Notes: a model not told the origin generated them from the letters alone. 62,516 nucleotides of DNA from a virus (IMGVR_UViG_3300019889_000015:1-62516), one strand, 5' to 3'. Shown: positions 19,287 through 57,574, counted from the stretch's first letter. Program-made: numbers and translations.

Positions 19287-19990
19287 TGATGTCTCGGATC
19301 TACCGGAACAAGGGCTCCATCGGCTACTGGCTGGCCGTCACGGCGCTCGCTATCGGGTTCGCGGTCGTGATGTTGATCATGGTCGATCTGGCTGGTCGGA
19401 TCAACGACTCGGAGAAGACGTCGGACGCCCGGCAGGAAGCGATCAACCTGCTGGCCGAAGATGTGCGCACGCTCCGACAGCAGGTCACGGACACCGGGGA
19501 GACGCCCGCCGTCCCGGAACCTGAGGAGCGGGTCGACGACCTACCGGACGTCCAGGTGCAGCCTGGACCGCCCGGCGAGCGCGGACCCGCCGGTCCGCCC
19601 GGACTCGTCGGGCTGCCCGGCCAACCGGGCGTCGACGGCGCTCCGGGTCCGATTGGGCCTTCCGGCGAGCCGGGTCTACCAGGCCCCGGTGGAGAGCCGG
19701 GAACCGATGGAGTCGACGGCGAGCCTGGTGCGCCGGGAACTGATGGCGTCGACGGAGAGCCAGGCCCGGCAGGTCCACAAGGCGAACCTGGTCCAGCAGG
19801 ACCGCAGGGCGAGCCCGGACCGCAGGGCGAGCCCGGACCGCAGGGCGAGCCCGGAACAGACGGCGATCCCGGTGTCGACGGTGAACCGCCCGCGTCGTGG
19901 ACCTTCACCTATCTGGCGTTCACCTACGTCTGCGAGCGGACCGAGCCGTTCGATCCAGCCAACCCCACCTACACGTGTTCGGTGGTCTGA
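19286..19990 (+). CDS. membrane-anchored collagen-like protein
   Basis: N-terminal TM helix, coiled coil, long Gly-X-Y run, C-terminal Cys pair. Confidence 0.8.
19799..19852 (+). repeat. 3 x 18-bp tandem repeat within the collagen gene
   Basis: ggaccgcagggcgagccc x3, encoding GPQGEP. Confidence 0.85.
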
Positions 19991-21140: not shown

Positions 21141-22639
21141 CGATCACCCGCTTCGATGGCGTCGCGCTCCCCGCCGGGTGGACAGCCGTCGCGCCGACCG
21201 GCTCCACGGTCACCGTCGCCAACGGGTACTGCGAGCTGGCGATCGCCGCGTCGCAGGACATGGACTCGCTCTCCAGCAGCGTTACCGCGCCGGAGGGGCC
21301 ATACATCTGGACGGCGGTCAGCGGCAATTTCGACTACGCGGTGTCGCTCGCCGAGGAGTCCATCAACCTCACCAACCAGGGCCTCGATCTACTCGGGCTG
21401 AACTCGGGCACGATGCAAGCGGTTCGTGTCGCCTGCTACTGCGCTGATCAGTCCGGGTCGTTCCGTGGCGACCGGAACTTCTTCGCCTTCCATCGCTGGG
21501 GCACCACCAATGTGTCCGGCACGCGGGCCAACGTCACCACCACCGACACTCTGGGCACGGTCCTGTACGGCGGTCCCGGCTGGCTCCGGCTGGCCTACGA
21601 CCAGCCCACCACGACGTACACGTACAAGGCCTCGATGGACGGCCGGACCTGGTTCCAGATCGCCCAGTGGACATCGCTGGCACCTGTCAACAGGTTCGCC
21701 ATCCACGCCACCGCCACCCCATCCGGCGCCGATGGCCGAGTCCAGCGAATCGCGCTCGTCGTCGACATGACCGGTCGTGGCGACGATGCCACCGAAGCGG
21801 CTCCGCCGGTCGGCAGGTCGACCGTCGAGTCGACCGACTTCGCCGCAGGCACGCTCCCGGCGTGGCTGACGACGGAGGTCGCCAACGGCGGTGCCGTAAG
21901 CACCGACGTCACCGGAGTCACGATCTCGCTGGATCGAAGCCAGGTGGGCAGCAAGGCATGGCTGCTCGGCCCCGACACCCTCAGCCCCGACCACGGCATC
22001 TTGATCAAGTATCAGGTGGCCGAGAACGGTTACACGAACGCTTTCTGGGTGCCGACCATCCGAGCCGAGGCCACTACGGACATTGCGGGCGCCCGGACAC
22101 CGGACGACAAGTTCGGCGCCGGGACCTCGATGCTGTTCGAGCTGGCTGCCCGCGACGATGACGTGGCCGGGCAGATCATCCGGCTGCTGCGCCGGTCACC
22201 CATCGCCGAGACCGAGACGCAGACCGGCACCCGCGAGTTCGACGGCTACACGATGCTGATCGAGAACCTGGCCGGAGAGGTCACCACAGTCGGAAAGCCC
22301 GTCACCTGGATGCGCCTGGAAGCCATCGGCGACGTGGTGCGCGGGCGGCTCTGGTACGACGGCAGCCCCGAGCCGTCGTCGTGGCAGTACCAGGTGTCCG
22401 ACGACATGCGGCGGGGCACGCAGGCAGCCTTCACCATCGCCCACAACGACACCGTGACCGGCAGCGGCAGCGCCTCTATGAAGTTGTCCTACATCGAGAT
22501 CTACGAACTCGCCGAGGTCACCGATTCCGAGCCGGTCAACGTCTTCGCCCTCGACGAGGTAGCGGTCGAGGAGCCGGTCGACATGCTCGTCCTCGTCGAC
22601 GGCATCGAGCGTCCGCTGAACGTCTCCGTGGCCACCTGA
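21137..22639 (+). CDS. beta-rich, lectin-like minor structural protein
   Basis: GTGA overlap; WLRL...SMDGRTW and W.DG.PEP..W beta-sandwich patterns. Confidence 0.6.
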   Translation: MTITRFDGVALPAGWTAVAPTGSTVTVANGYCELAIAASQDMDSLSSSVTAPEGPYIWTAVSGNFDYAVSLAEESINLTNQGLDLLGLNSGTMQAVRVACYCADQSGSFRGDRNFFAFHRWGTTNVSGTRANVTTTDTLGTVLYGGPGWLRLAYDQPTTTYTYKASMDGRTWFQIAQWTSLAPVNRFAIHATATPSGADGRVQRIALVVDMTGRGDDATEAAPPVGRSTVESTDFAAGTLPAWLTTEVANGGAVSTDVTGVTISLDRSQVGSKAWLLGPDTLSPDHGILIKYQVAENGYTNAFWVPTIRAEATTDIAGARTPDDKFGAGTSMLFELAARDDDVAGQIIRLLRRSPIAETETQTGTREFDGYTMLIENLAGEVTTVGKPVTWMRLEAIGDVVRGRLWYDGSPEPSSWQYQVSDDMRRGTQAAFTIAHNDTVTGSGSASMKLSYIEIYELAEVTDSEPVNVFALDEVAVEEPVDMLVLVDGIERPLNVSVAT

Positions 22640-22705
22640 GCCTCCTCCTTCTCCGCCCCACCGGCTGGTGGGCGGTGTTCCGCGCGCTCACCGTAAGGAG
22701 CCAGC

Positions 22706-23035
22706 ATGGCCTTCCTCGAAGACGTCATCGACAAGATCACTCCCGACATCGTGTCCATCGGGCTGGCCGATGGACCGACCGCAGGCGACGAGATCACTGG
22801 CGGCAGCTACGCCGCGCTGGCCCCGACCTACGGCGCCGCCGCAGCCGGTGAAGCTGACATCACCGCGACGCTGGAGTTCAGCGGCCCGGCCAATGGTGGA
22901 CCGGTCACTCACCTCATCTGGCGCAAGGCGTCGGGCGTGTGGGTGATCCGGCCCGCCACAGCTCCGGTGAGCTTCAACAGCGACGGTCGCCTGGACCTGA
23001 CGTCCGCGCCCGTCACGGCGGCGTTCCCGGCCTGA
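22706..23035 (+). CDS. small fibre-associated structural protein
   Basis: AAGGAG RBS; EITGGSYA and F..P...VTH motifs. Confidence 0.65.
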   Translation: MAFLEDVIDKITPDIVSIGLADGPTAGDEITGGSYAALAPTYGAAAAGEADITATLEFSGPANGGPVTHLIWRKASGVWVIRPATAPVSFNSDGRLDLTSAPVTAAFPA

Positions 23036-23037
23036 CC

Positions 23038-24189
23038 GTGGCACTGGAGACGTATAACGGGCGAACCGGGGCTGGGCTCGGCCCTGACCAAGCCTGGACG
23101 ACGGCCCAGGCCGGATACGTCACCGGCAGCAACACGGCTGGAATCAACACTGCCAGCGTCGAGGCCGTCGAGCGGATGGAGGTCGATCTCGGTTCGGACG
23201 ACATGTCCGTCGAGATCGTCTTCGCCGATACTCCGTCGGCTGGTTACGGCGACGTTGGTATCTGCATGCGCCAGGCGGCGTCGTCCGTGGTCTCCCCGGC
23301 TCGGTACTGCGTCAAGCGCGGCTCGACCGGCGGGTTCCTCACCGGCTTCTACCAGATCCGGCGATACAACGGTGGCGGCATCAGCGATTTCGTCTACCTC
23401 GTCAACACCACCGCACTAGTGTTCAGCGGCGCGACCGAGGTCTTCCGGGTCGAGGTCGAGGGATCGACCATCAGGGTTTACCAGAACAGCTCGCTGATCA
23501 ACACCATCGTCGACAGCGCTCCTGCGGCGATCACCACTGGTCACTACGCCGGGATCGACGGCTTCCGCTCCAACCTGAACGCGAGCACCACCGTCCGCGT
23601 CGACACGTTCGAGGCCGAACTGATCGGTGGTGGCCCGGCACCGGTCGACGAGATCACCGGCTCGCTGGCCCTGGAGATCGACCTGTCGGGCGCCCTCGAT
23701 GCCCCCACGGCCATCGTGCCGGGCCTGGTCGGAGCGCTGGGGCTTCTCGTAGACCTCGGCGGCATCCTGGACGCCCCGATCGCCTCCGTGCCCTCCGTGA
23801 CGGCAAATCTGCCTCTGAACGTCGACCTCGGAGGCAGTCTCGACCCGCCGACCGCTTCAGTGCCGTCACTGACGGGCGATCTCGCCTTCGAGGTCGACCT
23901 GACCGGCGACGTGTCCGGCCCCGGCGTGACCGTGCCCTCAGTGGCTGGCGCCCTGTCGCTGACGTTGACTCTGGCGGGCGCCCTCGTCGCCCCCACGGCG
24001 ACGGTCGGCGAGCTGTCCGGCGCACTGGCCCTGATCGTCGACCTCGACGGCTTCCTGACCGACCTGGGCGTGATCAGCGCGCCCAACCGGTACATCGTCC
24101 AGCCGGAGACCCGCGCCCTGATCGTGCAACCGGAGAGCCGCGCCGTGAACGTCCCGCCCGAGAGTCATCGCCAGGAGGCCACGTCGTGA
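23038..24189 (+). CDS. fibre-like protein with beta-sandwich domain and C-terminal repeats
   Basis: About five imperfect VDL.G.L..P.A.VP repeats. Confidence 0.6.
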   Translation: MALETYNGRTGAGLGPDQAWTTAQAGYVTGSNTAGINTASVEAVERMEVDLGSDDMSVEIVFADTPSAGYGDVGICMRQAASSVVSPARYCVKRGSTGGFLTGFYQIRRYNGGGISDFVYLVNTTALVFSGATEVFRVEVEGSTIRVYQNSSLINTIVDSAPAAITTGHYAGIDGFRSNLNASTTVRVDTFEAELIGGGPAPVDEITGSLALEIDLSGALDAPTAIVPGLVGALGLLVDLGGILDAPIASVPSVTANLPLNVDLGGSLDPPTASVPSLTGDLAFEVDLTGDVSGPGVTVPSVAGALSLTLTLAGALVAPTATVGELSGALALIVDLDGFLTDLGVISAPNRYIVQPETRALIVQPESRAVNVPPESHRQEATS

Positions 24190-24482
24190 GCACATACGTC
24201 CATGACAGCGATGCCGTCCTGCCGTACGAGTGGGACTGGTCCGAGTGGCTGGCCAACGAAGGCGCCGACACGCTCACGATGGTGGGCGTCACCGTCGTCG
24301 GCAGTCCGGCCGACATCCTCACCATCGGCGCACCGACTCAGCCGGAGCCCGGCGTTGTCCGGGCCATGATCGGCCCGGCGGTCGACGACGAGTGTCGCGA
24401 CGCTCAGATCACCTGCCACATCGAGACGGCCGGTGGTCGCAAGGACGACCGGACGATCGCGATCAAGATCCGTAACAGATGA
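24186..24482 (+). CDS. fibre-tail adaptor-like protein
   Basis: D.DAVL.Y.WDWS.WL...TC.I.T.GGR.DDRTI motif. Confidence 0.7.
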   Translation: MSTYVHDSDAVLPYEWDWSEWLANEGADTLTMVGVTVVGSPADILTIGAPTQPEPGVVRAMIGPAVDDECRDAQITCHIETAGGRKDDRTIAIKIRNR

Positions 24483-24497
24483 GTGTTTCCGTTCGTG

Positions 24498-24527
24498 TTG
24501 CAGTGTCCGATAACCGGCACCTACATT
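24498..24527 (+). promoter_or_regulatory. sigma70-type promoter candidate
   Basis: TTGCAG-N18-TACATT. Confidence 0.5.
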
Positions 24528-24533
24528 CGGAAT

Positions 24534-24769
24534 AGTTCGCCCCCGGACTCCAGCCAGCCCGCCCTAGGGGACGGACACCAGGGAAGCCGGGCGAGCGTCA
24601 AACCCGACATGGCCCCCCGTGTGCAGGGAACGGCGCTCGCCCGGTCACACTCGTGTATGGTTCTGTCTCGACATCTCTTTGCGTCTTGGCTCGTCCTCGC
24701 GCTCGGTTGGGGGATGTCAGAACGGCCCTTCCCGGTATCATTCGATACCAACGGGAAGGGCCGTTTTCT
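24534..24769 (+). ncRNA. candidate structured small RNA
   Basis: Promoter upstream, stems with + strand G-U pairs (24587-24599/24632-24644; 24670-24678/24710-24718), terminator at the end, no convincing ORF. Confidence 0.45.
24721..24769 (+). terminator. intrinsic terminator
   Basis: aacggcccttcccg / cgggaagggccgtt followed by ttct. Confidence 0.7.
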
Positions 24770-24794
24770 GCGTTTATGACCTAGATTGAATTGG

Positions 24795-24841
24795 CCCGGC
24801 CCCAATGACGTCGGGGTGCGCACGACGTCGCTGGGGCCGGG
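24795..24841. terminator. long hairpin, probable end of the leftward unit
   Basis: cccggcccca.tgacgtcg / cgacgtcg.tggggccggg. Confidence 0.45.
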
Positions 24842-24965
24842 TGTCTCATCTTGCGATAGTCCCGAGTACGACCGTTGCCAACATCAGAGCGAATAGGGCG
24901 TAGGTGCTGAAGATCGCATCCCGTCGCTCACTGCGAGTCGGTCTGGGCATCGCTTGCCTCCAGGG

Positions 24966-25322
24966 CTAGACCGACAGGGACTCCATGCGTCGACGCTGAA
25001 TCACGTTGGGCAGTTTGAAGTCCCCATGGGTGCAGCCCCGGAGGAACATCGTCCACTCGTCGGCGTCATAACGAAGATCACCGATCCGGTACCCGTCCGC
25101 CTCCGGGAGGATGTCGTGTGCGGAGTTGCAGAACTGGCGGAACTCCCGCAGAGTGAACCGCTCGACCGGCGAGGCGTCACCGAGCTTGGAGTCAAGCAAC
25201 TCGACAACATCCTGGCGGCGCCGTAGCAGGCCCACGCGCTTGGGCACGTATCGCACGACCACACATTGTGGCTTGTCGGCTGCGCAGAACGACGAGATGG
25301 TCTTCCTGTTGGGCTGAAGCAC
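24966..25322 (-). CDS. DUF397-like protein
   Basis: SSFC....CVVV...V.LLDSK...FT..EF..F, plus a second Y...EW..FL.G...G.F tail; GAGGGG RBS. Confidence 0.6.
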   Translation of the reverse strand: MLQPNRKTISSFCAADKPQCVVVRYVPKRVGLLRRRQDVVELLDSKLGDASPVERFTLREFRQFCNSAHDILPEADGYRIGDLRYDADEWTMFLRGCTHGDFKLPNVIQRRRMESLSV

Positions 25323-25489
25323 TGTTCCATTCCCCTCTAGTTAGTGCCTGGATGGGTAGCGGAGGCGGTGCTGTCGAGTCTCCGATCCCCCTGACGATTG
25401 CTCGCCAGATCGGGGACTCTGGGGTGGCAGCACCGCCGCCACGTACCGATGAACCTACAGCCGACCATGACACCTGTCTAGCAACTCGA

Positions 25490-25855
25490 TCATGTTTTGT
25501 GCGTGTTGGGGTATCCTCCCCCAGATCCTCCCGGCGGATGAAAGAGGAGCGACTGGCCTGGGAAGATGCAATCCACGTCGATATGCAGGATGCCCCGCTC
25601 GATCGGAATTCGTTCGCCATCCTCGTCGACGGCCAGGAACTTGTCCCGATGCGACGTCTCGACCAGCAGAAACGGCTGAACGGTGCCGTCCTCGAATCGA
25701 ACGGTCCCGCGCGTCGGCCGATCGGGTAGTCCTTGCTTGCGTGCTCGTCGGCGAACCCTGCGGGTAGAGAGCCACGGATGGATGATCTTCAGCCACCAGT
25801 AGGTGTAAACCATCCCGCTGAACATCCCCAGGACCCAGGAAAGATTGCTGCTCAT
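25490..25855 (-). CDS. hypothetical membrane protein
   Basis: N-terminal hydrophobic helix; ATGA overlap. Confidence 0.55.
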   Translation of the reverse strand: MSSNLSWVLGMFSGMVYTYWWLKIIHPWLSTRRVRRRARKQGLPDRPTRGTVRFEDGTVQPFLLVETSHRDKFLAVDEDGERIPIERGILHIDVDCIFPGQSLLFHPPGGSGGGYPNTHKT

Positions 25856-26361
25856 GACGCCATGATCTCCTGCCGTTGCGACTTCTCGCGGGCGAATTCC
25901 TTGGGGTGGCGCTTCGCCTTGTGCATGCCGAGCGCCTGTGGCCCCAGCGGTTGGTCGGGGCAGTACGGACACTGCGACCGTTCCGTTGATCTCGTGGCGC
26001 GCGAGGACGCGTGATAGGTCTGCCCGGCAGGAGAGTCCCAGAAATCCGGGTGGACGTCCCGAATGTGGCCCCGGTTCGTCGACACCTGCTTGTACTTGTT
26101 GGGGCACACTGGGCAGTCCAGCATGTTCGGCTTGCCGCCCGTCGAGGTCGGCGCCGCGATGAGCATCGACGACTTGACCCCCGCCTTCCTCAACGCAGCC
26201 ATGAACGGCTCGTACCACCCCGAGTCGCACTGCTTGCAGAGGTCCGTGACGATCTCGATACCACCGATCGTGTCGGTCCTGATCTCGGTGCCCTCGACCT
26301 CCTCGTCGAACTCGACCAGATGCCGTCCGCAGAGGATCTCGAACTTGACGCGGCGCACCAT
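25852..26361 (-). CDS. Lsr2-like N-terminal domain fused to two C2H2 zinc fingers
   Basis: CPVC-x12-HIRDVH and CPYC-x12-HKAKRH; N-terminus resembles the Lsr2 dimerisation domain; AAGGAG RBS. Confidence 0.6.
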   Translation of the reverse strand: MVRRVKFEILCGRHLVEFDEEVEGTEIRTDTIGGIEIVTDLCKQCDSGWYEPFMAALRKAGVKSSMLIAAPTSTGGKPNMLDCPVCPNKYKQVSTNRGHIRDVHPDFWDSPAGQTYHASSRATRSTERSQCPYCPDQPLGPQALGMHKAKRHPKEFAREKSQRQEIMAS

Positions 26362-26777
26362 CACGGCTCCTTGTGGGTCTTGGCGTACTTGCGATCTGCG
26401 GCCTCGATCTGCTTCTCGGTCAGCCCGAACTCCTCGCGGAGCTTCCTGCCGAACAGCACGCCCTTGCCGCGACCACTGATCCGCCCATGACCTACGAGCA
26501 GGTAGTCCGGTGCCTCCGAGTAGTCCAACTCTGTGCGCTCGACCTCGAACGTGGAGCGGTTGTGTTCGCGGTAGCGGATGACGCCACAGGCGCACTGCTT
26601 GCGCACAACGATTGCGCGAAGCTCGGGGTTGTATCCACCCGTGAGCGGCTTGTCATAGCGGTGTCGATCGACGCGGCATTCCAGTTGCTGCTCGTCGATC
26701 TTCTTGGCGAAATCCTCGACGACGCTTAGCGGCGCGACGTACGGGTCGATTGGCTCGGGTTGGGTCTGAACCTTCAC
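26361..26777 (-). CDS. hypothetical Cys/His protein
   Basis: CR..RH...CACG motif; AGGAG RBS before GTG. Confidence 0.6.
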   Translation of the reverse strand: MKVQTQPEPIDPYVAPLSVVEDFAKKIDEQQLECRVDRHRYDKPLTGGYNPELRAIVVRKQCACGVIRYREHNRSTFEVERTELDYSEAPDYLLVGHGRISGRGKGVLFGRKLREEFGLTEKQIEAADRKYAKTHKEP

Positions 26778-27055
26778 GCTGTCGTACTCCTCTCGATAAG
26801 GACTAATCCGTGTTCTGCGAGCTGGTTGATGACCATCTGCATGCTGCCAGGTGGCCAGTCGAAATCTCTGTCTAGCTCCTTCATGGTCGCCTCGTCGAGG
26901 CTCCTCGCCGAGAGCATGTCCACAATGTGTGGCGTCGCCGCCCTGATGAGAACGTCCGCCTGCCACGAGACCATCTGTCGGTACCCTGCGGCGGTCGCGT
27001 CTTCCAGCGCGTCGCACGCTTTCTGGAACGCGATCCGCTCCGCATCAGATGTCAT
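26774..27055 (-). CDS. hypothetical protein
   Basis: Overlapping junctions with both neighbours. Confidence 0.5.
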   Translation of the reverse strand: MTSDAERIAFQKACDALEDATAAGYRQMVSWQADVLIRAATPHIVDMLSARSLDEATMKELDRDFDWPPGSMQMVINQLAEHGLVLIERSTTA

Positions 27056-27188
27056 GGTCACGCTCGCGGTGCTCATCCCACAGCCTCGTCACATCTTCGG
27101 CTGCTTCCGTGTTTCCCGATGCGTCTGCGTCATCACGGTGGGATTGGAAGTCCTCGCACTCATCGCAGTAGATCTCTTCGTACGCCAT
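27045..27188 (-). CDS. small acidic CxxC protein (47 aa)
   Basis: Hand translation MAYEEIYCDECEDF...; below the ORF-track cutoff. Confidence 0.45.
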   Translation of the reverse strand: MAYEEIYCDECEDFQSHRDDADASGNTEAAEDVTRLWDEHRERDHDI

Positions 27189-27719
27189 TCGATATCCCCA
27201 CCCCAAGGACTAATTGTCGGTTCTGTTCTTTTTGTCCATTCGTGCCCTGACACGCAATATCTGGGTGTGCTGAGCGCGAACTATTCGGCGCCACCACGTG
27301 ACTCTACGTCGGGTCGCGTGACGGCCTCTGCGAAGTTGTTGGCGACTCACCGAAACTCCCTGTTATTGTTCGCCCACGGGCTGGTCAACCCTCCGGGGAG
27401 GGTCCTGGCCCCAGACAGCCCTCCGGCTTCCGCCCTGCACGGCCGGAGGGCTGTCGTTCGTCCCGAACGATAACGGAGCGCGACACGCCGTGTACGCAAA
27501 GTTGCGCACTCCGTGATACGCAACCTTCGGCAATCCGCAAACGTGGAGCTACATGTGTCGCCTAGCGTCCGAGCGTGAATGATCGACATCGTTTTCATGT
27601 CCCGTGGCCATGGTGGTTCTGCTGCGGCTTCAGATCGCTATGGTGCATCCTCGACGTGATGACCTGCTGCAAGATCGGTGCGATCTGTCACGCCCACGAC
27701 CGAGCGATCACGAGGCCCT

Positions 27720-27911
27720 ATGAGTGACGAGAAGATTCACTACACCCGGATAGAGGTCGGCGCCGGGAACGATGGCCCGGACGGCCATACAAACGTCGAA
27801 GTTCGTATCGAGATCACGTGGCGCAATGGAATGACGGCGGGTCAGGTCATGCAAGGTGTCGAAATCGCCCGCCACGAGGTCAAGAAGCGCGTGGCCGAGG
27901 AGCTGCTGTGA
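27720..27911 (+). CDS. hypothetical protein
   Basis: GAGG RBS; first gene of a rightward cluster. Confidence 0.5.
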   Translation: MSDEKIHYTRIEVGAGNDGPDGHTNVEVRIEITWRNGMTAGQVMQGVEIARHEVKKRVAEELL

Positions 27912-27952
27912 CTCTGACTGGACCCTACGATCTGACCCCTGGGAGGGCGACG

Positions 27953-28303
27953 ATGACGGATAAGAGCGACTGGTCCGACGATCCCGACGCGAAGAAGTGG
28001 CTCGACCACGCACAGAAGACGTTGCCGCCGATGATGCGCGACTCGGCGATCTGTATGTCCCTAACGCCAGCCAATGGAGTGCCGGACGCCAAGTACGCCG
28101 TCGAGCTGGGCATGATGATCATGATGGACAAGCCGATCATCGTGCTCGTTCAGCCCGGCACCAAGGTGCCCGAGAAGCTCATGCGCGTCGCCGATGGTGT
28201 CGTCGAGGTTGACCTTGCCAAGAAGCCCGAGGAGAGCCAGCAACGCATTAACGCGGCGATCGACGACATCATGAGGCGGCTCGGGCTCCACGAGGAGCTG
28301 TGA
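27953..28303 (+). CDS. hypothetical protein, possible nucleoside deoxyribosyltransferase-like fold
   Basis: AVELGM.IMMDKPIIV motif; GGGAGG RBS. Confidence 0.55.
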   Translation: MTDKSDWSDDPDAKKWLDHAQKTLPPMMRDSAICMSLTPANGVPDAKYAVELGMMIMMDKPIIVLVQPGTKVPEKLMRVADGVVEVDLAKKPEESQQRINAAIDDIMRRLGLHEEL

Positions 28304-28367
28304 GTAAGAACCTGATCAAGGCCGGGCTCGTGATCGGCTTCCTGGTCTACCTGGTCGCGAGGCCGCG

Positions 28368-28595
28368 ATGAACCCGATCAATCACGGCACGAACGCCGGG
28401 TATCACCAGCATCGGCGGTACGGGGTGCCAACGTGCGCCGAGTGCAAGGCCGCCAGCAACGAGTACGACAAGCTCTATGGGCGGGCGAGTTCACGTGCGT
28501 TACGGCGGCTGCGGGACCTCCACCCCGACGAGTACAAGCGCGCGTTCTTCGAGGAGTTGACCATCGCGCGCGAGGAACTGGGGAGGCAGCTTTGA
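28368..28595 (+). CDS. small His/Cys protein
   Basis: HGT..GY..HRR....C..C motif. Confidence 0.6.
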   Translation: MNPINHGTNAGYHQHRRYGVPTCAECKAASNEYDKLYGRASSRALRRLRDLHPDEYKRAFFEELTIAREELGRQL

Positions 28596-28819
28596 CCGTC
28601 CGGCTGATCTACGAGATCGGGGTCGACCCCGGTGACAATGCCGAGATGGCCGAGGCGCTCAAGGTGATCAAGGCGGCCTCGAATCTCACCCCCGAGAAGC
28701 ACGAGCTGTTCGCTAAGTTGCTACTCATGGCAGCTCGCGAGGAGTGGCGAGAAGCTGACCGAATGCGGCATCTCTGGGCTGTCCGACAAAGACAAGAAGC
28801 GAGGAAGAAGGGCAAGTGA
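28592..28819 (+). CDS. hypothetical protein
   Basis: TTG start overlapping the upstream stop; GGAGG RBS. Confidence 0.5.
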   Translation: MTVRLIYEIGVDPGDNAEMAEALKVIKAASNLTPEKHELFAKLLLMAAREEWREADRMRHLWAVRQRQEARKKGK

Positions 28820-29058
28820 CCGATACAGCACGCGTCATCATCGAGGTTCTGGCCGGGCTGAAACCTGGCAAGCCGGAAGATGAGTTCACCCAGCGAATCG
28901 TGATCACGTCCGCCGAGTGGGAGGCTGCCAGCCACAACAAGGATGGCCAGAGGCAATTACTAGCAGCGCGCAACACCCAGGCGAGCCTGTACGCCTCTGG
29001 CCTGATGATGCGGCCGGACCGGCTCAACTGGGTGAAGCTCGAATGGATCCGGCTATGA
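28816..29058 (+). CDS. hypothetical protein, paralogue of 55170-55508
   Basis: Shared ARxIIEVxAG...QRQLL...PDRxNWV..WI. Confidence 0.65.
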   Translation: MTDTARVIIEVLAGLKPGKPEDEFTQRIVITSAEWEAASHNKDGQRQLLAARNTQASLYASGLMMRPDRLNWVKLEWIRL

Positions 29059-29321
29059 CCACGGCCTGGATACCGAAGTGGACACTGCCGCCAGCCGACC
29101 ACCTGCGCGAGTTCGTGGAGCGGTGGGCGGTTCACCCCACGGAGGCGATGGCGTGCGCATCGCTGGCCAAGATCCCCGCCGAGCGGTGGCAGGAACTGCT
29201 CGACGGCACCGGCAAGCCGATGACCCTCCTGGAGGCGTCCGACGTCGGGATGATGCTGGGACCGAACATCGCCTTCTGGCAGAACCTCGTCAAGCAGTAC
29301 AACGACCGGGACGCGGGATGA
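29055..29321 (+). CDS. HigA/VapI-like HTH antitoxin homologue
   Basis: PP.DHLRE...ELLDG...MT..EA......G....FWQNL..QY pattern. Confidence 0.55.
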   Translation: MTTAWIPKWTLPPADHLREFVERWAVHPTEAMACASLAKIPAERWQELLDGTGKPMTLLEASDVGMMLGPNIAFWQNLVKQYNDRDAG

Positions 29322-29509
29322 GCTTGATCATTTGCGACGCGGACTACCCAAGTGTGGAGAACGGCCGCTACCACATCGGCTACATCGAACTGACCAACGG
29401 CTACCGGCACGCCTTCTACGACGAGCGGGTGCGCCATGTCCGCTACTCGCGGAAGCCGGACCACCCCGCCGACCCGCGCTGCCCCGAGTGCAACCGGGAC
29501 GCGGGATGA
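29318..29509 (+). CDS. small Cys/His protein
   Basis: ATGA overlaps at both ends; flanked by a 21-bp direct repeat. Confidence 0.55.
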   Translation: MSLIICDADYPSVENGRYHIGYIELTNGYRHAFYDERVRHVRYSRKPDHPADPRCPECNRDAG

Positions 29510-29733
29510 GCTTCACCTGCCCGGAGTGTGGCCGGTCGAGCCACCATCCCAAGGACGAGGAGTTCGGCTACTGCGGGGCCTGCCACGACTTCACCGGCCG
29601 ACTCATCGAGGAGGTCAACTTGCCGGACGACGCCTTCTGCAAGGAGTGCGGACAGCCGTGGGTCGTCCACACGATCATGATCACCAACGACCGGGCGTGC
29701 CCGGATCTGAGTTGGGCCGGGCCGGAACGATGA
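29506..29733 (+). CDS. zinc-ribbon protein
   Basis: FTCPECGR.S.HP.D...GYCGACH motif. Confidence 0.65.
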   Translation: MSFTCPECGRSSHHPKDEEFGYCGACHDFTGRLIEEVNLPDDAFCKECGQPWVVHTIMITNDRACPDLSWAGPER

Positions 29734-29951
29734 AGGAGTTCGAGCCGCTGCACGGTCGCCCAATGGCCATCAAGCGCGGCCTGGATGAGGTCTGGGGCGT
29801 CGTCGAGGCGATCGAATGGAACGAAGACCAGCTCATCGTCAAGCTGGGGCCGAGTACCGGCGAGATGGGCCTGTCCATCACCATCACCCTGACCCCGGAC
29901 GAGATCGAGCTGCTGCGCCGGGCGCTGGCCGACATCAGTGGAGGATCGTGA
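29730..29951 (+). CDS. hypothetical protein
   Basis: Overlapping junctions. Confidence 0.5.
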   Translation: MKEFEPLHGRPMAIKRGLDEVWGVVEAIEWNEDQLIVKLGPSTGEMGLSITITLTPDEIELLRRALADISGGS

Positions 29952-30118
29952 TGACGGCCATCTTCGAGAATGTCGACAGCAGGATCAAGGTGCATATCCC
30001 GTTCGAGTGCCCCCGATGTGCCGAGTCGGTGCGGTACGGGCAGACCTGCGCGGAAGACTTCAGCGTGACGCTTGCCCCATGTGGGCACAAATTCTTCGCG
30101 CCACCGTTCAAGCTGTAG
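29951..30118 (+). CDS. small zinc-ribbon protein
   Basis: CPRC...CGH; GGAGG RBS. Confidence 0.5.
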   Translation: MTAIFENVDSRIKVHIPFECPRCAESVRYGQTCAEDFSVTLAPCGHKFFAPPFKL

Positions 30119-30128
30119 CGGGGAGAAT

Positions 30129-30389
30129 ATGACCGACGAAGTGCAGTTCGATGGCTGGGTGTGGAGCAACCTCGGCGAGCGCGGCAACCTGCTGGCGGGT
30201 GAGGGCTGGCGGTACGTCAGGGACAAGGGACCTCGGCATCTGTTTGATAACCGGCCGGGGAGGTCGTGGTGCATGTCGCGCTGCGGGATCGAACTGCCCG
30301 ACGAGGAGTGGCGCGGCACCGGGAGCCAGGAAGAATACGAGCGCCTGGCGAGCAGACCGAAGTGCCTCCGCTGCATGAGATCGCTCTGA
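30129..30389 (+). CDS. hypothetical Cys protein
   Basis: GGGGAG RBS; WRGTGSQEEYE....PKC.RC. Confidence 0.55.
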   Translation: MTDEVQFDGWVWSNLGERGNLLAGEGWRYVRDKGPRHLFDNRPGRSWCMSRCGIELPDEEWRGTGSQEEYERLASRPKCLRCMRSL

Positions 30390-30399
30390 ACTGCGACTA

Positions 30400-30455
30400 T
30401 AGGTAGGTCATATCTCGCGTGCGGGCAAGTCCATGCTCCAGATATAACCTACATA
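30400..30455. other. candidate serine-integrase attP
   Basis: GTAGGTCATATCT / AGATATAACCTAC 12-of-13 inverted repeat spanning 50 bp with central AA; non-coding. Confidence 0.45.
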
Positions 30456-30482
30456 ACGATGCAGGTCAAAGACTTGGGCAGC

Positions 30483-30521
30483 AAAACGGCCCTCCCGAAC
30501 CAACTGCGGGAGGGCCGTTTT
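30483..30521. terminator. bidirectional terminator
   Basis: aaaacggccctcccg / cgggagggccgtttt between convergent genes. Confidence 0.8.
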
Positions 30522-30549
30522 CGCGTCCCTTGGGGGCGGTTGGAGCTTA

Positions 30550-31329
30550 TCAGCGGAGCACGACAACGCCCATCGTGTGGACGTCGGCGTACTCGGCTAC
30601 GCGCTCGTGGGAGCGGATCTCCAGCCACGCGCGCTTCATCTCATCGGACCAGTTGATGTCGTCGAACACGAGCATCGCGCCTGGCTTGCACACGTCGACC
30701 AGCGCGCCGAAGTACGCCATGGTCGGACCGAAGTAGTGGTTGCCGTCCACGAACGCGAAATCCGGTGCCGGATCGCCGAGCGCGTCCTTGAAGGTGTCGG
30801 CGAAGTCGCCGACGTGGATGTCCACCTTGCTCTGGTCGGCCCCAGACAGGTCCAGCACCATTCGGGCCGCGCCGACCAGGATCGGCGACAGCTCTAGGGA
30901 CGTCAGGAGCGAGTGCATCGGCAAGCCGTGAGCCTGGTAGGCCGTCGACACTCCGCAGCAGGTGCCCATCTCCAGCGGGGCCGTGGGCTCCTGGTGGAGC
31001 GTCAGCGCGTACAGCAGCCGGGCCTCGTCCGGCCCCTTGGAGGCCCGCTCGGCCATCCGGCCGACCGTGATGTCGGCGGGCTTGTACGGCGCCCCAAGCG
31101 GGCAGGTGTTGGCGATCACCTGGTGGCGGGCGACCTCGATCCGGGCGAAGGTGGTCAGCTCGTCGTCGGACCACTCCTCGTCGGCTGCCTGACGCAGCGC
31201 CCGACTCAGCGGCGTCTCGGTGCCGAGCCGGTTGGACTCGTCCCGGAGCGCGACCCGATAGCGGGTGCTGGAGTCGCCGATGGTGGTTTTGAGATTGAAG
31301 CGGTCGAACAGTCGGTGGAGCAGGTTCAT
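30550..31329 (-). CDS. class I SAM-dependent O-methyltransferase (Methyltransf_24-like)
   Basis: LEMGTCCGVST, FVDGNH and PG..LVFDD motifs. Confidence 0.85.
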   Translation of the reverse strand: MNLLHRLFDRFNLKTTIGDSSTRYRVALRDESNRLGTETPLSRALRQAADEEWSDDELTTFARIEVARHQVIANTCPLGAPYKPADITVGRMAERASKGPDEARLLYALTLHQEPTAPLEMGTCCGVSTAYQAHGLPMHSLLTSLELSPILVGAARMVLDLSGADQSKVDIHVGDFADTFKDALGDPAPDFAFVDGNHYFGPTMAYFGALVDVCKPGAMLVFDDINWSDEMKRAWLEIRSHERVAEYADVHTMGVVVLR

Positions 31330-31360
31330 GTCGTCCTCTTTTTCGGTTGGGTGTTCGGTA

Positions 31361-31945
31361 CTACCAGTCGAGCCAGGCGACGTCCTGAGAGCCGTGGTCG
31401 TGGACCATCACGACCGAGCCCTCGATGACGTCCTCGGGCACGTAAAGCGCGACCATCATGGTGCCGCTGATGACCCCGCCGGGGGCCACGATGCCGGTGT
31501 CGATGTGGTTGCCGGGCCGGATGGCGATGTTCTCCCCGACCTCCACACCATTGCCGCCCATCAGGCCCAGGCTGATGCCATCGGCGAACGACAGGATCTT
31601 GTCCGGTACCTCGCCGATGCGGACGGCCTCGACCTCGGCGATCACGTTCACGAAGCCGGGCTCCGGCACGCCCAGCTCGGCCGTCTCCGGGTCGGGCGGT
31701 TCGGTCGATGCGACGACGCTCTTGACGGTCACTTCCCACGCCGAGAGCGTCAGCACGGTGTCGGTGGGTATTGGCTTGTCCCACGACCCAAAAATTCCTA
31801 CGGGAACCTCAGCCGAGACAGCGGTCGGTTCATCTGGTTCGCTCTGCACTGTTTCCGTCTCTGGTTCTGATTCGCTTTCGTCCGCCGAGCAGGCGGTGGC
31901 GAACAGTAAAAAGGCCAGAATGACGATCCCCCCGTATTTCTTCAT
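31361..31945 (-). CDS. lipoprotein
   Basis: MKKYGGIVILAFLLFATAC signal/lipobox then acidic linker; alternative start 31972. Confidence 0.7.
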   Translation of the reverse strand: MKKYGGIVILAFLLFATACSADESESEPETETVQSEPDEPTAVSAEVPVGIFGSWDKPIPTDTVLTLSAWEVTVKSVVASTEPPDPETAELGVPEPGFVNVIAEVEAVRIGEVPDKILSFADGISLGLMGGNGVEVGENIAIRPGNHIDTGIVAPGGVISGTMMVALYVPEDVIEGSVVMVHDHGSQDVAWLDW

Positions 31946-31971
31946 TGGGTGAGAATATCCGAAATAGGTCA

Positions 31972-32166
31972 TTACGTCTCCTCGTCGTCCTCGGCCGCAG
32001 GAAAGGGCACCGTCTTCGGGTCGATCCGGACGTAGATTCCCGAGTTCGTATGCTTGCCGCAGTGACAGCAGATCTCGTTGGCGCCGACCTCGCGCAGCCG
32101 GTAGGCCGTATGATCAGGGTTGCGCTCATCCCAGCAGACACGACACACGGGCTGGGTCCAGTTCAT
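31972..32166 (-). CDS. zinc-finger protein
   Basis: CRVCW...CCHCG. Confidence 0.6.
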   Translation of the reverse strand: MNWTQPVCRVCWDERNPDHTAYRLREVGANEICCHCGKHTNSGIYVRIDPKTVPFPAAEDDEET

Positions 32167-32612
32167 GGCATCTCCCACACTGTTCGGCGACCGTCGTGGA
32201 TCACCGCGAGCGGGCCAGCCACCTTGAGGTACGTGGACGGCACCACGTGGCCTTGCAACATCATCACTTCCAGCGACTTGCCGTCCTCGGTCACGCGGAC
32301 CAGGGCGCCCCCGCCCGTGGTCAGCACAGTGCCAGGCGAGCACGCCGCCAGCTCGGCCTCCGTCGAGATGACCTTCGAGTCGGCGAGTACCTCGGCGAGC
32401 TGTTCTGGCTCGATCTCGGCCAGTTCGCGGATACGCTTCGCCGCCCACTGGAGCGCGTCAGCCCACGTGATCAGGCTCAGGCCGTACAGGCTGCCGCCAT
32501 GGAGGGCCTCCCGGCTGCGCTTGGTGCGCCGGGCCTGCCGGTCGAAGTACCTCGCGATGCTGACCAGCCGCTGATCGGCGTCTGGTGGCTCGTCGACGGT
32601 TGTCGCGCTCAT
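32163..32612 (-). CDS. hypothetical protein
   Basis: AAGGAG RBS; coupled to neighbours. Confidence 0.55.
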   Translation of the reverse strand: MSATTVDEPPDADQRLVSIARYFDRQARRTKRSREALHGGSLYGLSLITWADALQWAAKRIRELAEIEPEQLAEVLADSKVISTEAELAACSPGTVLTTGGGALVRVTEDGKSLEVMMLQGHVVPSTYLKVAGPLAVIHDGRRTVWEMP

Positions 32613-32617
32613 GGCCG

Positions 32618-33016
32618 TTACTCCTTCTCGATCTGACGTGCCCATACCTCGGCCGGGAAGTCGAAGCAGTCGCAGAGATCGGACTGCTTGCACTCGACGA
32701 TCGTGTCACCGGAGTGTGGGCAGTGTCCCGCCAGCACGCGCGTTGCGTAGTGGTGCAGCCACTTCATCGTGTCCGTGCGCGTCGGATCAGCGGTGTGATC
32801 CGCCAGCCACGTGAACAGCGCCAGTTCCACGTCGCGGTGCCGCTTCGCGAGCTTGCCGACGAACCACTCCGAGCGGAGGATGTCGAACGCGAGCTGCATA
32901 TCGCCGTTGCCGGATTCGTCGGGCGCTGGTCCGACGCCGCCGCCCATCTCGAACCAGGACTGCCGGATCACCTTGTCCAACGCGAGCTGATCCTGGTCTG
33001 GCGTCTCGGCGGTCAT
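32618..33016 (-). CDS. hypothetical protein
   Basis: GGAGGAGG RBS; C-terminal Cys cluster. Confidence 0.55.
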   Translation of the reverse strand: MTAETPDQDQLALDKVIRQSWFEMGGGVGPAPDESGNGDMQLAFDILRSEWFVGKLAKRHRDVELALFTWLADHTADPTRTDTMKWLHHYATRVLAGHCPHSGDTIVECKQSDLCDCFDFPAEVWARQIEKE

Positions 33017-33342
33017 CCCTCCTCCTTCTGCTTGATCGGCTCGTACTCCGACACCCGGCGTCGACACAGGCGCGCGGCCGACGCTGGCAGCACGCTGCGG
33101 GGACCGGCGTAGCTGTGTAGCCACTCGACGGCCTCCTCGCGGGTGACGCCCTTGGCGACGTATCGGTCGAACGGACCGTCGATGTACGTCTTGACCTGGA
33201 CGGCCCACTCCTTGTCCTCGATCTCGGTAAGCCAGTTGATCACAGCGTCGGTGACGTCATTGATCATGTCGGTCACTGCCCGGTGTTCGTTCGCCAGGAT
33301 CGAGCCGTAGATGACTGCTTGAAGATCTGCGCGCTCGGTCAC
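33013..33342 (-). CDS. hypothetical protein
   Basis: GGAGG RBS; overlapping junctions. Confidence 0.55.
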   Translation of the reverse strand: MTERADLQAVIYGSILANEHRAVTDMINDVTDAVINWLTEIEDKEWAVQVKTYIDGPFDRYVAKGVTREEAVEWLHSYAGPRSVLPASAARLCRRRVSEYEPIKQKEEG

Positions 33343-33644
33343 GAGTCGTCCTCCACTCGTTGCAACTGCCATGTCAGCTTCTCCACCCGGCCCGCCCTCC
33401 AGCGAACGACGAATTCATCGCGGAACGACAGCAGGCCCGCGACGATGAGCCAGGTGACGATCGAGATGATCAGTGCCCTGTTCGCCGCCGGGTACAGAAG
33501 GTAGGTGGTCAGCGAGCCCCACATCGCACCGAGGACAAACAGCGTGATGGTGGTGCGCCAACGACGGCGCTTGTCGAGCATCCGGTCGATCGCCTGCATG
33601 AGCAATACGATCTCGCGCTCGATCGCGGCCTCGATCGATTCCAT
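33339..33644 (-). CDS. two-TM membrane protein
   Basis: Two hydrophobic helices; GAGGAG RBS. Confidence 0.6.
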   Translation of the reverse strand: MESIEAAIEREIVLLMQAIDRMLDKRRRWRTTITLFVLGAMWGSLTTYLLYPAANRALIISIVTWLIVAGLLSFRDEFVVRWRAGRVEKLTWQLQRVEDDS

Positions 33645-33646
33645 GA

Positions 33647-33928
33647 TCACTCCTCGACCTCGATGATCACGGTGCTCTCCTTGCTCATCTCTCCACGGCA
33701 CTCAATCCCGCAGGTGGTGCAGATGATGTAGGGCCACTCGTAGGCGCTCACCTTCATCGTGTTGCCGGACAGGCTGAACTGGCCGAGTGGGACCGCCTCC
33801 AGGCGCCACTGGATGGTCAGCGTGAGCGACGAGCACCGTGGGCAGGGGAACTGGGCCACGTACGCCACCAGATTCTCCCTGGTGCCGTCTGTGGGCTCAG
33901 CGAAGCCCTCCTCAGCATGGTCGGTCAT
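33647..33928 (-). CDS. zinc-ribbon protein
   Basis: CPRC...CTTC. Confidence 0.6.
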   Translation of the reverse strand: MTDHAEEGFAEPTDGTRENLVAYVAQFPCPRCSSLTLTIQWRLEAVPLGQFSLSGNTMKVSAYEWPYIICTTCGIECRGEMSKESTVIIEVEE

Positions 33929-34170
33929 CCGACTGCGTTCGCCGCTTCAACGGCCAGCAGGGCCTTGATCGCCAGGCGCTCCTTGCCGTCGCCGTAGCGG
34001 TGCTCCACGGTGTCGATCAACGGGCCGACCGTGTTACGGGGCGTGATCTCCCGGATCTCGTAGTGGTTGTTGTCATCAACCCCCACTAAGCCATTCACGT
34101 TCGTGACCCGCTTGATCTCGTAGTCGGCCAGCGTGCTCGCCGTGTCGGCGATCGTCACGCGCAACGCCAT
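33925..34170 (-). CDS. hypothetical protein
   Basis: MALRVTI...HRYGDG...LA motif; AAGGA RBS. Confidence 0.6.
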   Translation of the reverse strand: MALRVTIADTASTLADYEIKRVTNVNGLVGVDDNNHYEIREITPRNTVGPLIDTVEHRYGDGKERLAIKALLAVEAANAVG

Positions 34171-34171
34171 C

Positions 34172-34576
34172 TCATTCCTTCTTGTCGTCCGGGGGCTGCT
34201 GTCCCATCGCTTTCAGCTCCTCATCATCGAACAGCGCCACCGCCTGGCGCAGCGTCTCGACGATCAGCTCGTGCTCGCGACGGGCCTCATCCTCGGTGGA
34301 GTGCCGCGTGGTGAACTCCTCGAACTCGGGGTGATCGGCGATCACCTTGTTGATGAGTGCGATGTACCTGTCCCGAGGCGGCTCGAAGACCATCGTCTCG
34401 AAGATCAACGGCGGGCCGTCGCCGTAGCGGTGGTCGGTGCCAAGCCAGGCAGTCGATACCTCGTATGGCCCGACCTTGGTGAACACGACGCGCCGGTAAT
34501 CAAGATCCTCGTAGAGCCTGCCCAGCTCCACCAAGCTGATCGGGTCGCCTTCGCGGTTGTAGTGACGGATCGTCAT
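34172..34576 (-). CDS. conserved phage protein
   Basis: VSTAWLGTDH.....PLIFETMVF motif. Confidence 0.7.
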   Translation of the reverse strand: MTIRHYNREGDPISLVELGRLYEDLDYRRVVFTKVGPYEVSTAWLGTDHRYGDGPPLIFETMVFEPPRDRYIALINKVIADHPEFEEFTTRHSTEDEARREHELIVETLRQAVALFDDEELKAMGQQPPDDKKE

Positions 34577-34920
34577 CGGACCAGCCTCTCCTCGTCCTGC
34601 TCGTATTTCACCGCACGAAGCTCGGCGATCCGCTTGGCGTGCCGTTCTCGCTCGGCCCGCAGTTCGAGCTTGTGCGGGGCGCACAGGGCCAGCGCGCCCC
34701 GCCCTGGCCGTTCGCCGTCCAGCCACTCGGCGCCGTACGATCCGCAGCGGTTGCAGCGGACGTTCCAGCCCCAGAGCCCGCCCTTCTTGGCCTGCTCCAT
34801 CGTCACCGGCCCGGCCAGGAATCCCTCCCGACACCAGCCGCAGACGCATTTCTTGTCGGCGCCCGCATTGTGGGCGGAAACCCCATGGCCGCACCGGAAG
34901 CAGTGCTTACCCAAAAGCAT
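34573..34920 (-). CDS. Cys-rich protein
   Basis: Several CxxC motifs; AGGGGG RBS. Confidence 0.55.
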   Translation of the reverse strand: MLLGKHCFRCGHGVSAHNAGADKKCVCGWCREGFLAGPVTMEQAKKGGLWGWNVRCNRCGSYGAEWLDGERPGRGALALCAPHKLELRAERERHAKRIAELRAVKYEQDEERLVR

Positions 34921-35110
34921 CGAATAACCCCCTGAAACGTAAGCAGGCGCCGCGCGAGAGTAAGAGGAGGATCACCCCCGCGCGGCGCCCGTGATGTGTT
35001 CGCCGATATCCGATTTGGACGCCGAGCCCGCCAAGGCTTCGAGCGCCGCGATCAGCGCAACATCGGTGATGCTAGTGGCTCGAATTTGGGCTTGTCCGGA
35101 GAATCATAGA

Positions 35111-35166
35111 AAAAAGCACCCCTCCCGCCGGAGACAGGAGTATCCAGGCGCGGAGGGGTGCTTTTT
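35111..35166. terminator. intrinsic terminator (bidirectional type)
   Basis: aaaaagcacccctcc / ggaggggtgcttttt. Confidence 0.75.
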
Positions 35167-35193
35167 CTTACATCGTCAGCGAGAGATGACCTC

Positions 35194-36126: not shown

Positions 36127-36226
36127 GGTTGGTCCTTTCAACAGGGTCAATTAACACGAACAAAACGAGCAACGGCGTGGACATTACCTCATCGAATGTC
36201 GTCGTGGGGCACGAACTGGAACTTTT

Positions 36227-36274: not shown

Positions 36275-36329
36275 CGCTACGGTCCAGGGAATCCCCAACC
36301 GGGACGACAACCGAGAGGACGCGAACGCC

Positions 36330-36509
36330 ATGATCGCCATCCCCCTGACCCGTGGCCGAGTGGCCCACCGAGGCAGATATCGCGCCAGCGACAGACGCTC
36401 CGACGACCGCATCCTCACGCCCGGCGAGGGCCTTCTGCTCTGCCTCGTCGTCATGATCGCCCTGTACTTTGCCGTTTGGGCTGGCTGGAAGGCGGTGTTC
36501 GGTGGCTAA
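36330..36509 (+). CDS. small membrane protein (59 aa)
   Basis: Hand translation; C-terminal TM helix; GAGAGGA upstream. Confidence 0.5.
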   Translation: MIAIPLTRGRVAHRGRYRASDRRSDDRILTPGEGLLLCLVVMIALYFAVWAGWKAVFGG

Positions 36510-36669
36510 CCTGGCGACGTTACTCCCGGAGATCAAGTCGCTGGGCGACACTCCGCTGGAGCGGAGCATCCGCGACCACGCAATGGCGCGGGTCAAAACG
36601 GCACACGCGGTGGCCATAGGGCAGCCGCTGTTCATCTTCATCGAGACCACCTGGCCGACGAGGCCGGGA

Positions 36670-38169: not shown

Positions 38170-38329
38170 GATCTTCCTGGGCTGTTAAACGAACCGCTCT
38201 CCGCGACATAGATCGGAGGGCCGTTCGGCCGTTCGGGTGGCCGGTCGAACTGACGGTCATGTAGCGTTCGTGGAGTCAGAGCCGATTCGCTTGGCGACGT
38301 TCTCTGTTCGGTTGGTTGGGCTGGGTCAA

Positions 38330-38373: not shown

Positions 38374-38391
38374 CGGAGCGATGGGGGGCCG

Positions 38392-57546: not shown

Positions 57547-57574
57547 GATCGTTTCTCCCCTTGCTATTGGTCGG

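Follow-up and report, generated by a model that had tools for sequence, protein, structure and literature searches.

A candidate structured RNA element behind the late operon of a soil actinobacterial phage and its possible pairing with a repeated gene leader

The late, structural genes of an actinobacterial phage from soil, known from metagenomes alone (virus record IMGVR_UViG_3300019889_000015), end at a stop codon at position 24482, and the stretch directly behind it, 24483-24769, raises the question of what a phage might carry in the gap between two convergent gene blocks. All positions refer to the window, by which we mean the whole stretch of DNA analysed, 62,516 nt with 66% G+C and an estimated completeness of 80%. 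A first-pass annotation had proposed that the gap encodes a small RNA (sRNA) acting in trans, with a loop antisense to the ribosome-binding site shared by an array of distant genes, most of which it could silence together. We put the probability that the stretch is a functional non-coding RNA element on the + strand at roughly three in four; it is probably an sRNA or else forms a structured tail at the 3' end of the late operon. That it acts in trans by base pairing is a tentative view, on modelled interaction energies a little short of an even chance, and the repeated leaders of the array appear unlikely to be its true target.

A structured, non-coding stretch behind the late operon

The candidate RNA folds with a minimum free energy of -117.7 kcal/mol on the + strand (z = -4.66), a stability equalled by none of 200 shuffled sequences, and the - strand is less distinctive when compared with its own shuffles (z = -3.17). 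Its most stable structures, and the only conserved ones, are hairpin 2 and the terminator (Table 1). The apical loop of hairpin 2, CCCC (24613-24616), forms part of a run of six C residues (24613-24618). The terminator hairpin is followed on the + strand by UUUUCUGCGUUU, with the U tract UUUUCU; the same hairpin could fold on the - strand (-36.8 kcal/mol), where it is followed by UUCUGACAUCC, and the U tract is found on the + strand only. Between the two lies hairpin 3, in which GACAUCUCU (24670-24678) pairs with GGGGAUGUC (24710-24718). This stem is recovered by the fold of the whole RNA, and two of its pairs are G-U pairs that are possible on the + strand only. Upstream, the pattern TTGCRG-N16-19-TACAKT has a single match in the window, against 0.02 expected, and this is the promoter-like site of the element. 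The first-pass annotation had described the promoter-like site, the stem with its + strand G-U pairs, a folding stretch of about 235 nt and the terminator, and each of these is present in the sequence as it described.

No credible open reading frame (ORF) occupies the stretch. The candidate ORFs have a G+C content at third codon positions (GC3) of 0.52-0.69, compared with 0.75-0.96 for the ORFs retained in the gene map of this genome; they cross the terminator, and none is common to the related contig described below. A conserved leaderless start was likewise rejected, as the GTG found at the predicted start in the relative has no equivalent in the window. An attachment site (attP) is unlikely, since a serine recombinase, encoded 12 kb away, was the sole integrase found. 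A search of the stretch for tRNA and tmRNA genes gave none. Rfam models gave no match anywhere in the window at their gathering thresholds, which the element did not reach for the 6C model or the C4 antisense RNA either; with E values up to 10 allowed, the only match inside the element was to a microRNA model, which aligned with the terminator hairpin and scored 27 bits where 82 are needed.

Late transcripts must traverse the element, as no terminating hairpin lies between the stop codon and its terminator. A separate hairpin stands on the leftward side, so that each of the two convergent blocks has a terminator-like hairpin of its own. A sequence resembling the array leader in the sense orientation is read on the - strand of the element, and any antisense character therefore requires transcription of the + strand; since two hairpins would stop leftward transcripts before they reached this copy, expression of the + strand is the likelier. 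What the sequence shows directly is the anatomy of the stretch, its want of coding capacity, its fold, its partial conservation and its complementarities; that it is transcribed, that a free RNA is released and that translation is affected are inferences. Just ahead of the hairpin of the leftward block lies a possible membrane ORF of 34 aa (24846-24950).

The sole useful relative, obtained from searches anchored on the 98-aa gene that closes the late block, is G001, a 34.8-kb viral contig whose structural and tail genes share 70-85% DNA identity with those of the window and whose counterpart of the 98-aa product is 55% identical. Behind this gene G001 has the same order of features: the stop codon, a promoter-like TTGCGG-N17-TACAGT, about 210 nt with strong predicted structure (z = -7.64), a terminator with a U tract, and the leftward genes. 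The top local alignment of the two gaps covers the -10 box and the first transcribed bases, CGGCAnnTACAnTCnGAAnnGTTCGCC, with 21 of 27 positions identical (12 of 300 shuffles did as well), and the second-best covers the 5' arm of hairpin 2. In G001 the equivalent of hairpin 2 (z = -5.0) has a CCCCC loop, again within a run of six C residues. The distance from stop codon to terminator, about 240 nt, has been kept in both phages despite the drift in sequence. As promoter-like site, hairpin 2 and terminator are shared and G001 is without hairpin 3, we regard the former as a conserved module and the hairpin that faces the leaders as an addition made in this lineage.

Wider searches added little. 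The DNA of the element matched none of 50,697 phage records, and the only copy found by DNA search was an identical one on a 65,365-base contig (L004, contig 889 of G002) binned with a metagenome-assembled genome (MAG) of Pseudonocardia. This contig holds an identical copy of the phage region and exceeds the window by about 2.8 kb; the bin is the sole indication of a host, and a weak hint at that. Across 401 genomes of the MAG's family a full match was found in the MAG alone, and 39 further genomes gave marginal matches of 23-54 nt (E 1e-4 to 1e-2), mostly on the G+C-rich leftward terminator; this tally takes in the unpublished genome G040, and we base no claim on it. A pattern built from the conserved 5' block found seven stretches and was genuine only in G001. 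In the protein-anchored searches, loci more distant than G001 carry other genes downstream. Relatives of the 98-aa protein with less than 60% identity occur in 46 Mycobacterium phage records, where some are annotated as minor tail proteins.

A second soil sample (runs X3 and X4) also has contigs identical to the window across 23671-26098, and hence offers no variants of the element to compare. The same sample contains a diverged strain with many substitutions and one replaced segment (22557-22706) in the tail-fibre region (22500-23678), and a loose end at 24239 that resembles the G001 version of the 98-aa gene.

The gene blocks listed in Table 1 were assigned from a GC3 map together with Pfam matches. 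Two repeat-bearing genes were noted in passing. In the tail region, in-frame 18-nt repeats (GGACCGCAGGGCGAGCCC) at 19565-19870 look collagen-like by eye, and repeats of 12 or 18 nt at 35335-35460 belong to a gene whose 318-aa product weakly matches an LPXTG anchor.

Table 1. Positions of the element, its parts, the neighbouring gene blocks and the proposed pairing partners in the window
Feature	Position	Strand	Description or basis
Structural (late) block	154-24482	+	GC3 map, Pfam
Last gene of the late block, 98 aa	24186-24482	+	GC3 0.85; element begins directly past its stop codon
Promoter-like site	24498-24527	+	TTGCAG (24498-24503), 18-nt spacer, TACATT (24522-24527)
Candidate RNA, about 235 nt, free or 3' tail of late transcript	24533-24769	+	Fold, non-coding
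5' stretch, C-rich, weakly structured	24539-24564	+	5' domain z +0.38, no better than shuffles
Hairpin 2, long, apical loop all C	24586-24645	+	-41.8 kcal/mol, z -5.2
Hairpin 3	24670-24718	+	z -2.4 alone; 4 of 200 shuffles fold equally well
Anti-leader segment UCGUCCUCGCGCUCGGUUG	24691-24709	+	Enclosed by stem of hairpin 3
Intrinsic terminator of rightward transcripts	24720-24769 (hairpin 24720-24766)	+	-37.0 kcal/mol, z -8.0
Terminator-like hairpin closing leftward block	24795-24841	-	-39.2 kcal/mol, z -5.0
Leftward block	about 24846-36150	-	GC3 map, Pfam
Leader-like CAACCGAGAGGACG	36308-36321	+	8 nt ahead of ATG 36330 of a 59-aa ORF preceding the serine integrase gene
Block opening with 59-aa ORF and serine recombinase (36330-38169)	to 54137	+	GC3, Pfam
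Site complementary to RNA 5' stretch	36478-36489	+	Start region of serine integrase ORF
Leftward block containing leader array	62012 down to 54134	-	GC3 map, Pfam
Nine copies of leader CAACCGAGCGAGGA	56493-60905	-	Each about 11 nt ahead of an ATG

Pairing with the array leaders and the integrase region

The proposed targets are the nine copies of the leader CAACCGAGCGAGGA, which start at 56493, 58051, 58361, 58619, 59310, 59938, 60268, 60669 and 60892; six are exact and three have one mismatch, and matches with up to two mismatches number 11 in total against 1.1 expected. Within 56400-61000 (- strand), each leader closes a repeat of about 94 nt that contains the inverted repeat GCGCGACAG ... 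CTGTCGCG and a small GC hairpin, after which comes CAACCGAGCGAGGAGAACGATCATG. No -10 box of the sigma-A type is evident in the repeat by eye. Elsewhere, the leader pattern was found in 94 stretches of viral contigs, and the 80 listed have one copy each; distant phages with homologues of the genes on the array side showed no comparable arrays of a shared leader. Three unrelated viral contigs have dispersed short repeats of their own (L153 5973-7490, L154 3602-7500 and L145 1214-7300), with CAGAAAGGATAGAG in 4-6 copies and TTGTTTGAAGTCTG in 7-8, and these may be shared start-region or promoter motifs.

The segment enclosed by hairpin 3 is complementary to the leader apart from 2 extra bases, which agrees with the 2-nt bulge of the first-pass annotation and can be read directly from the sequence; within it, CGCUCGGUUG (24700-24709) is perfectly complementary to CAACCGAGCG of the array leaders. 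The annotation had also placed this segment in a loop, which in the folding prediction is not an open one. Its bases are unpaired with probabilities of 0.04-0.75, being mostly open at 24700-24704 only.

Pairing was scored in the manner of IntaRNA, as the best duplex of 24 x 26 nt plus the opening energies of both partners. By this measure the best partner of all nine leaders is the same site, 24683-24719 in hairpin 3, with net energies of -11.6 to -16.0 kcal/mol. Averaged over three leaders the candidate RNA reaches -11.96 kcal/mol, compared with -5.43 +/- 1.93 kcal/mol for dinucleotide-shuffled versions of itself, none of 206 of which attained its value, and -5.12 +/- 2.01 kcal/mol for native 235-nt segments of the genome, of which a single one among the 466 scored (of 471) was better. 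That segment, 38306-38540, overlaps a small ORF. The region has a GC hairpin behind the recombinase gene (38325-38540), and the small ORF (about 38393-38540) has a hydrophobic product. For an RNA and a leader that had both been named beforehand, the modelled fit would be unusual at roughly the 0.2-0.5% level. The leader fit was, however, noticed post hoc, so G+C-rich a genome gives about one equal segment, and the fit is not the strongest interaction predicted for the RNA.

Tests of other kinds disagree with this result. Sequences within an edit distance of 2 of the leader 14-mer, on either strand outside the array, occur at five loci against 3.38 +/- 1.91 in 200 dinucleotide shuffles. The first-pass annotation had itself put forward its match with caution, as short, G+C-rich and perhaps due to chance. 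A scan for plain duplexes in 40-nt windows placed the candidate 13th overall, and 4th when the antisense strand of the array itself was excluded, but such a scan is non-discriminating in this G+C-rich genome; a full-length duplex search was dropped, as it returned unrealistic whole-molecule duplexes.

A second target suggested earlier was the leader-like sequence upstream of the integrase operon. This pairing was not supported: its window ranks 318 of 1034, and the best site in that window is not the leader. The segment 24549-24560, in the 5' stretch of the RNA, is a perfect 12-nt complement of 36478-36489, which falls between the first possible start of the integrase ORF (TTG 36469) and an in-frame GTG at 36502, and this target has a predicted net energy of -20.2 kcal/mol, ranking 2 of 1034. 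Of the four perfect 12-nt complements to the RNA, two are in translation start regions, namely this one and the leader copy at 60268. The coincidence is suggestive, as read from sequence matches picked out post hoc whose total number is at the level of chance.

Competing explanations

As we currently favour it, the element would work as follows. Late transcripts would read through 24483-24769 on the + strand, and the element probably has a promoter of its own at 24498-24527, which would yield a free RNA of about 235 nt. This RNA would most likely cover purine-rich ribosome-binding regions of phage messages by pairing, its exposed C-rich parts being the 5' stretch and the C loop of hairpin 2. 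Hairpin 3, found in this lineage only, would add a segment fitting the shared leader of nine genes of the early block. We prefer such a base-pairing regulator to a purely cis-acting 3' end, while giving it somewhat less than an even chance of being right. Should this RNA prove real, the phage-borne RNA regulators of Actinobacteria would gain a member, one linking the late operon to the control of early genes or of the integrase.

Several results weigh against this picture. At the promoter, the -35-like box TTGCAG agrees with TTGACA at three of six positions only, and a simple consensus scanner called neither the promoter-like site nor the element's terminator. The element is known from just two lineages, and the gaps of the two phages have no BLAST similarity even though their flanks are about 80% identical, a divergence with which a loosely constrained spacer would also be compatible. 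The all-C apical loops are only 4-5 nt long in both versions of hairpin 2. The anti-leader segment is predicted to be partly paired, the opening of 24694-24709 costing 8.8 kcal/mol. Hairpin 3 is missing from G001, whose RNA is predicted to form only poor duplexes with the nine leaders of the present phage (mean -2.15 kcal/mol). Exact complements between the RNA and the sense strands of the phage are at the level of chance, whether counted as 10-mers (41 against 32.7 +/- 9.5) or as 12-mers (4 against 2.6 +/- 2.0). Finally, with the RNA fixed and the sense strands scanned in 1034 overlapping windows of 114 nt, 71 windows match or beat the mean value of the leaders. The interpretation put forward in the first-pass annotation is accordingly supported only in part, in that the nine leaders share one best predicted site and no shuffle and a single native segment do as well, but many other target windows pair as strongly and the responsible hairpin is not shared with G001.

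The main competitor, which we regard as possible though somewhat less probable than pairing in trans, is that the stretch acts purely in cis as the structured, untranslated 3' tail of the late operon. Its long hairpin would then be a processing or stability element, for instance a site for a double-strand-specific RNase or an obstacle to exonucleases, standing ahead of the terminator, and its fit to the leaders and the integrase region would be chance at 66% G+C. Much of the evidence above sits comfortably with this explanation: the position directly behind the final late gene, unseparated from it by any terminator, the restriction of both high stability and conservation to hairpin 2 and the terminator, the chance-level counts of leader matches and exact complements, the many windows that equal the leaders, the native coding segment 38306-38540 that beats the candidate on them, and the lack of hairpin 3 in G001. 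It accounts less well for the retention of a stop-to-terminator gap of about 240 nt through so much drift, for a best-conserved block that is promoter-shaped, with hexamers and start region kept and the spacer variable, and for pairing with the fixed leaders that exceeds all 206 shuffles. Were the pairing a matter of chance, nothing more than an ordinary structured 3' end would be left.

A narrower proposal, close to that of the first-pass annotation, is that the stretch encodes an RNA devoted to the leaders, with hairpin 3 masking the Shine-Dalgarno sequences of most array genes together and so silencing these genes, be it in the lysogen or at a late stage of infection. We consider this unlikely. 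In its favour are the perfect core of 10 nt (12 nt for the copy at 60268), to which UCCUC opposite GAGGA is added, the choice of one common site by all nine leaders, a rank of 2 among 467 native segments, and the failure of every shuffle to do as well. Nine of the 14 windows that hold a leader are within the top 71 of the 1034, though these windows are copies of one sequence and their ranks are not independent. Being part of the late transcript would, we suppose, supply a natural switch from early to late expression, and phage Adephagia offers a parallel in which the single reversed copy of its shared leader motif forms the loop at the tip of a hairpin within a non-coding gap (see below). Set against this, the net pairing energy of about -12 kcal/mol is modest, with opening costs of 9-12 kcal/mol on the RNA and 4-10 kcal/mol on the message, and better predicted targets than the leaders exist: windows that hold a leader rank from 8 to 154, and the top-scoring windows pair with the 5' stretch of the RNA rather than with hairpin 3. 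Hairpin 3 is weak when folded alone as well as missing from G001, the integrase leader gives no support, no second phage with the leader was found (the 80 listed of the 94 stretches being single chance copies), and the right ends of phages from four other Cluster K subclusters failed to show the Adephagia parallel. G001 itself terminates at the equivalent of window position 55264, short of where the array would lie.

The weakest alternative takes the leader-like 16-mer CAACCGAGCGCGAGGA on the - strand as a decayed copy of the array leader with no antisense role, either a relic of recombination or an extra site for a factor that recognises the leaders as DNA or RNA; it is improbable, for although the copy lies on the same strand as all nine in the array, and the authors of the Cluster K work, in the parts of their article covered here, left protein or RNA binding open and preferred proteins that bind DNA as the partners of the inverted repeats upstream (PMC3203893), the similarity is confined to 14-16 nt, a 2-nt insertion would upset a protein site, there is no start codon at the proper distance (the nearest ATG giving 9 codons), and two hairpins block leftward transcription into the copy.

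Comparison with shared leaders and regulatory RNAs

The leader array has its nearest likeness in the SAS (start-associated sequence) and ESAS motifs of Cluster K mycobacteriophages. The portions of the original description covered here report a short, asymmetric motif with a Shine-Dalgarno core, found in a single orientation a few bases ahead of the ATG in many non-structural genes and often with an inverted repeat upstream, together with one odd copy away from gene starts in the K1 phages; a phage or host RNA or protein was left as the possible binder (PMC3203893). The nine - strand copies in the window have the same layout, about 11 nt before their ATGs and in a single orientation. They differ in sequence, CAACCGAGCGAGGA here against the Cluster K consensus GGGATAGGAGCCC, and the phages are unrelated save for distant similarity among tail proteins, the element having no DNA match in the phage records searched. 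The odd copy here also has its 2-nt insertion and sits behind the late operon, not before it.

The Adephagia genome (JF704105) provides the closest parallel to the anti-leader hairpin. Genes 92 and 93 are separated by a gap of 430 nt. There the single reversed SAS copy, which has one mismatch (58682-58694 of the record), makes up CCUCCUAUCC, the apical loop of 10 nt, in a hairpin of 53 nt formed on the + strand (L114 13662-13714, about 58661-58713 of the record), and the 186 nt around it fold well beyond expectation (z = -6.56). Late transcription reportedly appears to begin between these two genes, and the expression study concerned, in the part covered here, still calls the role of SAS unknown (PMC11373665). 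Reversed copies with up to three mismatches are lacking from the last 5 kb or so of Pixie, ZoeJ and Unicorn, and the right end of Kratio has only a three-mismatch match inside a gene, which confines the parallel to one subcluster.

These observations allow a broader idea, one we hold to be quite improbable though less so than a decayed copy: leaders of the SAS type might be the receiving end of an RNA switch in which an untranslated hairpin of the late transcript holds a sequence complementary to the leader. This sequence would reside in the 3' tail of the late operon here and, in Adephagia, in a hairpin loop in the gap where late transcription reportedly begins, and accumulating late RNA would cover the ribosome-binding sites of many early genes together. 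If true, this would give a function to a motif still undefined, in the portions of the literature covered, 13 to 14 years after its description, and would explain why many unrelated early genes in some actinobacteriophages have a start-region motif in common. As far as the covered parts of papers from 2011, 2024 and 2025 go, the question of this motif was left open (PMC3203893, PMC11373665, PMC12699233). A literature search confined to article texts found no proposal of an antisense RNA for SAS motifs; in the portions covered, "opposite orientation", "reverse", "sRNA" and "non-coding" are all absent from PMC12699233, and "non-coding" and "noncoding" from PMC11373665.

Among bacterial RNAs, the closest in design is B11/6C of mycobacteria and other Actinobacteria, whose C-rich loops, according to the part of the source covered, pair with G-rich ribosome-binding sites and repress translation (PMC10470900). 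The long hairpin of the window and of G001 is alike in ending in an all-C loop within a six-C run. It differs in that the element has one C loop of 4-5 nt and B11/6C has two larger ones, in being phage-borne and joined to a late operon, and in giving no match to the Rfam 6C model at E values up to 10.

In phage biology, c4 of P1 and P7 and CI of P4 are structured RNAs that pair with short sites on other phage transcripts, including a ribosome-binding region; they are processed from the operon they control and serve immunity, with one or two targets. The targets proposed here are instead nine copies of one leader, 32 kb away, and no relation of the element to the c4 or CI RNAs was found by sequence or through Rfam. 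Regulatory RNAs derived from the 3' ends of messages are another precedent, being structured, sharing the terminator of the message and acting either in trans or on decay. The sib hairpin of lambda, behind int, acts in cis on int, whereas the integrase gene here is 12 kb from the element. To our knowledge, few phage-borne regulatory RNAs have been described in Actinobacteria. As a kind, the element would be a phage-encoded regulatory RNA of this general sort; the control of many genes by one RNA through a shared leader would, if shown, be new.

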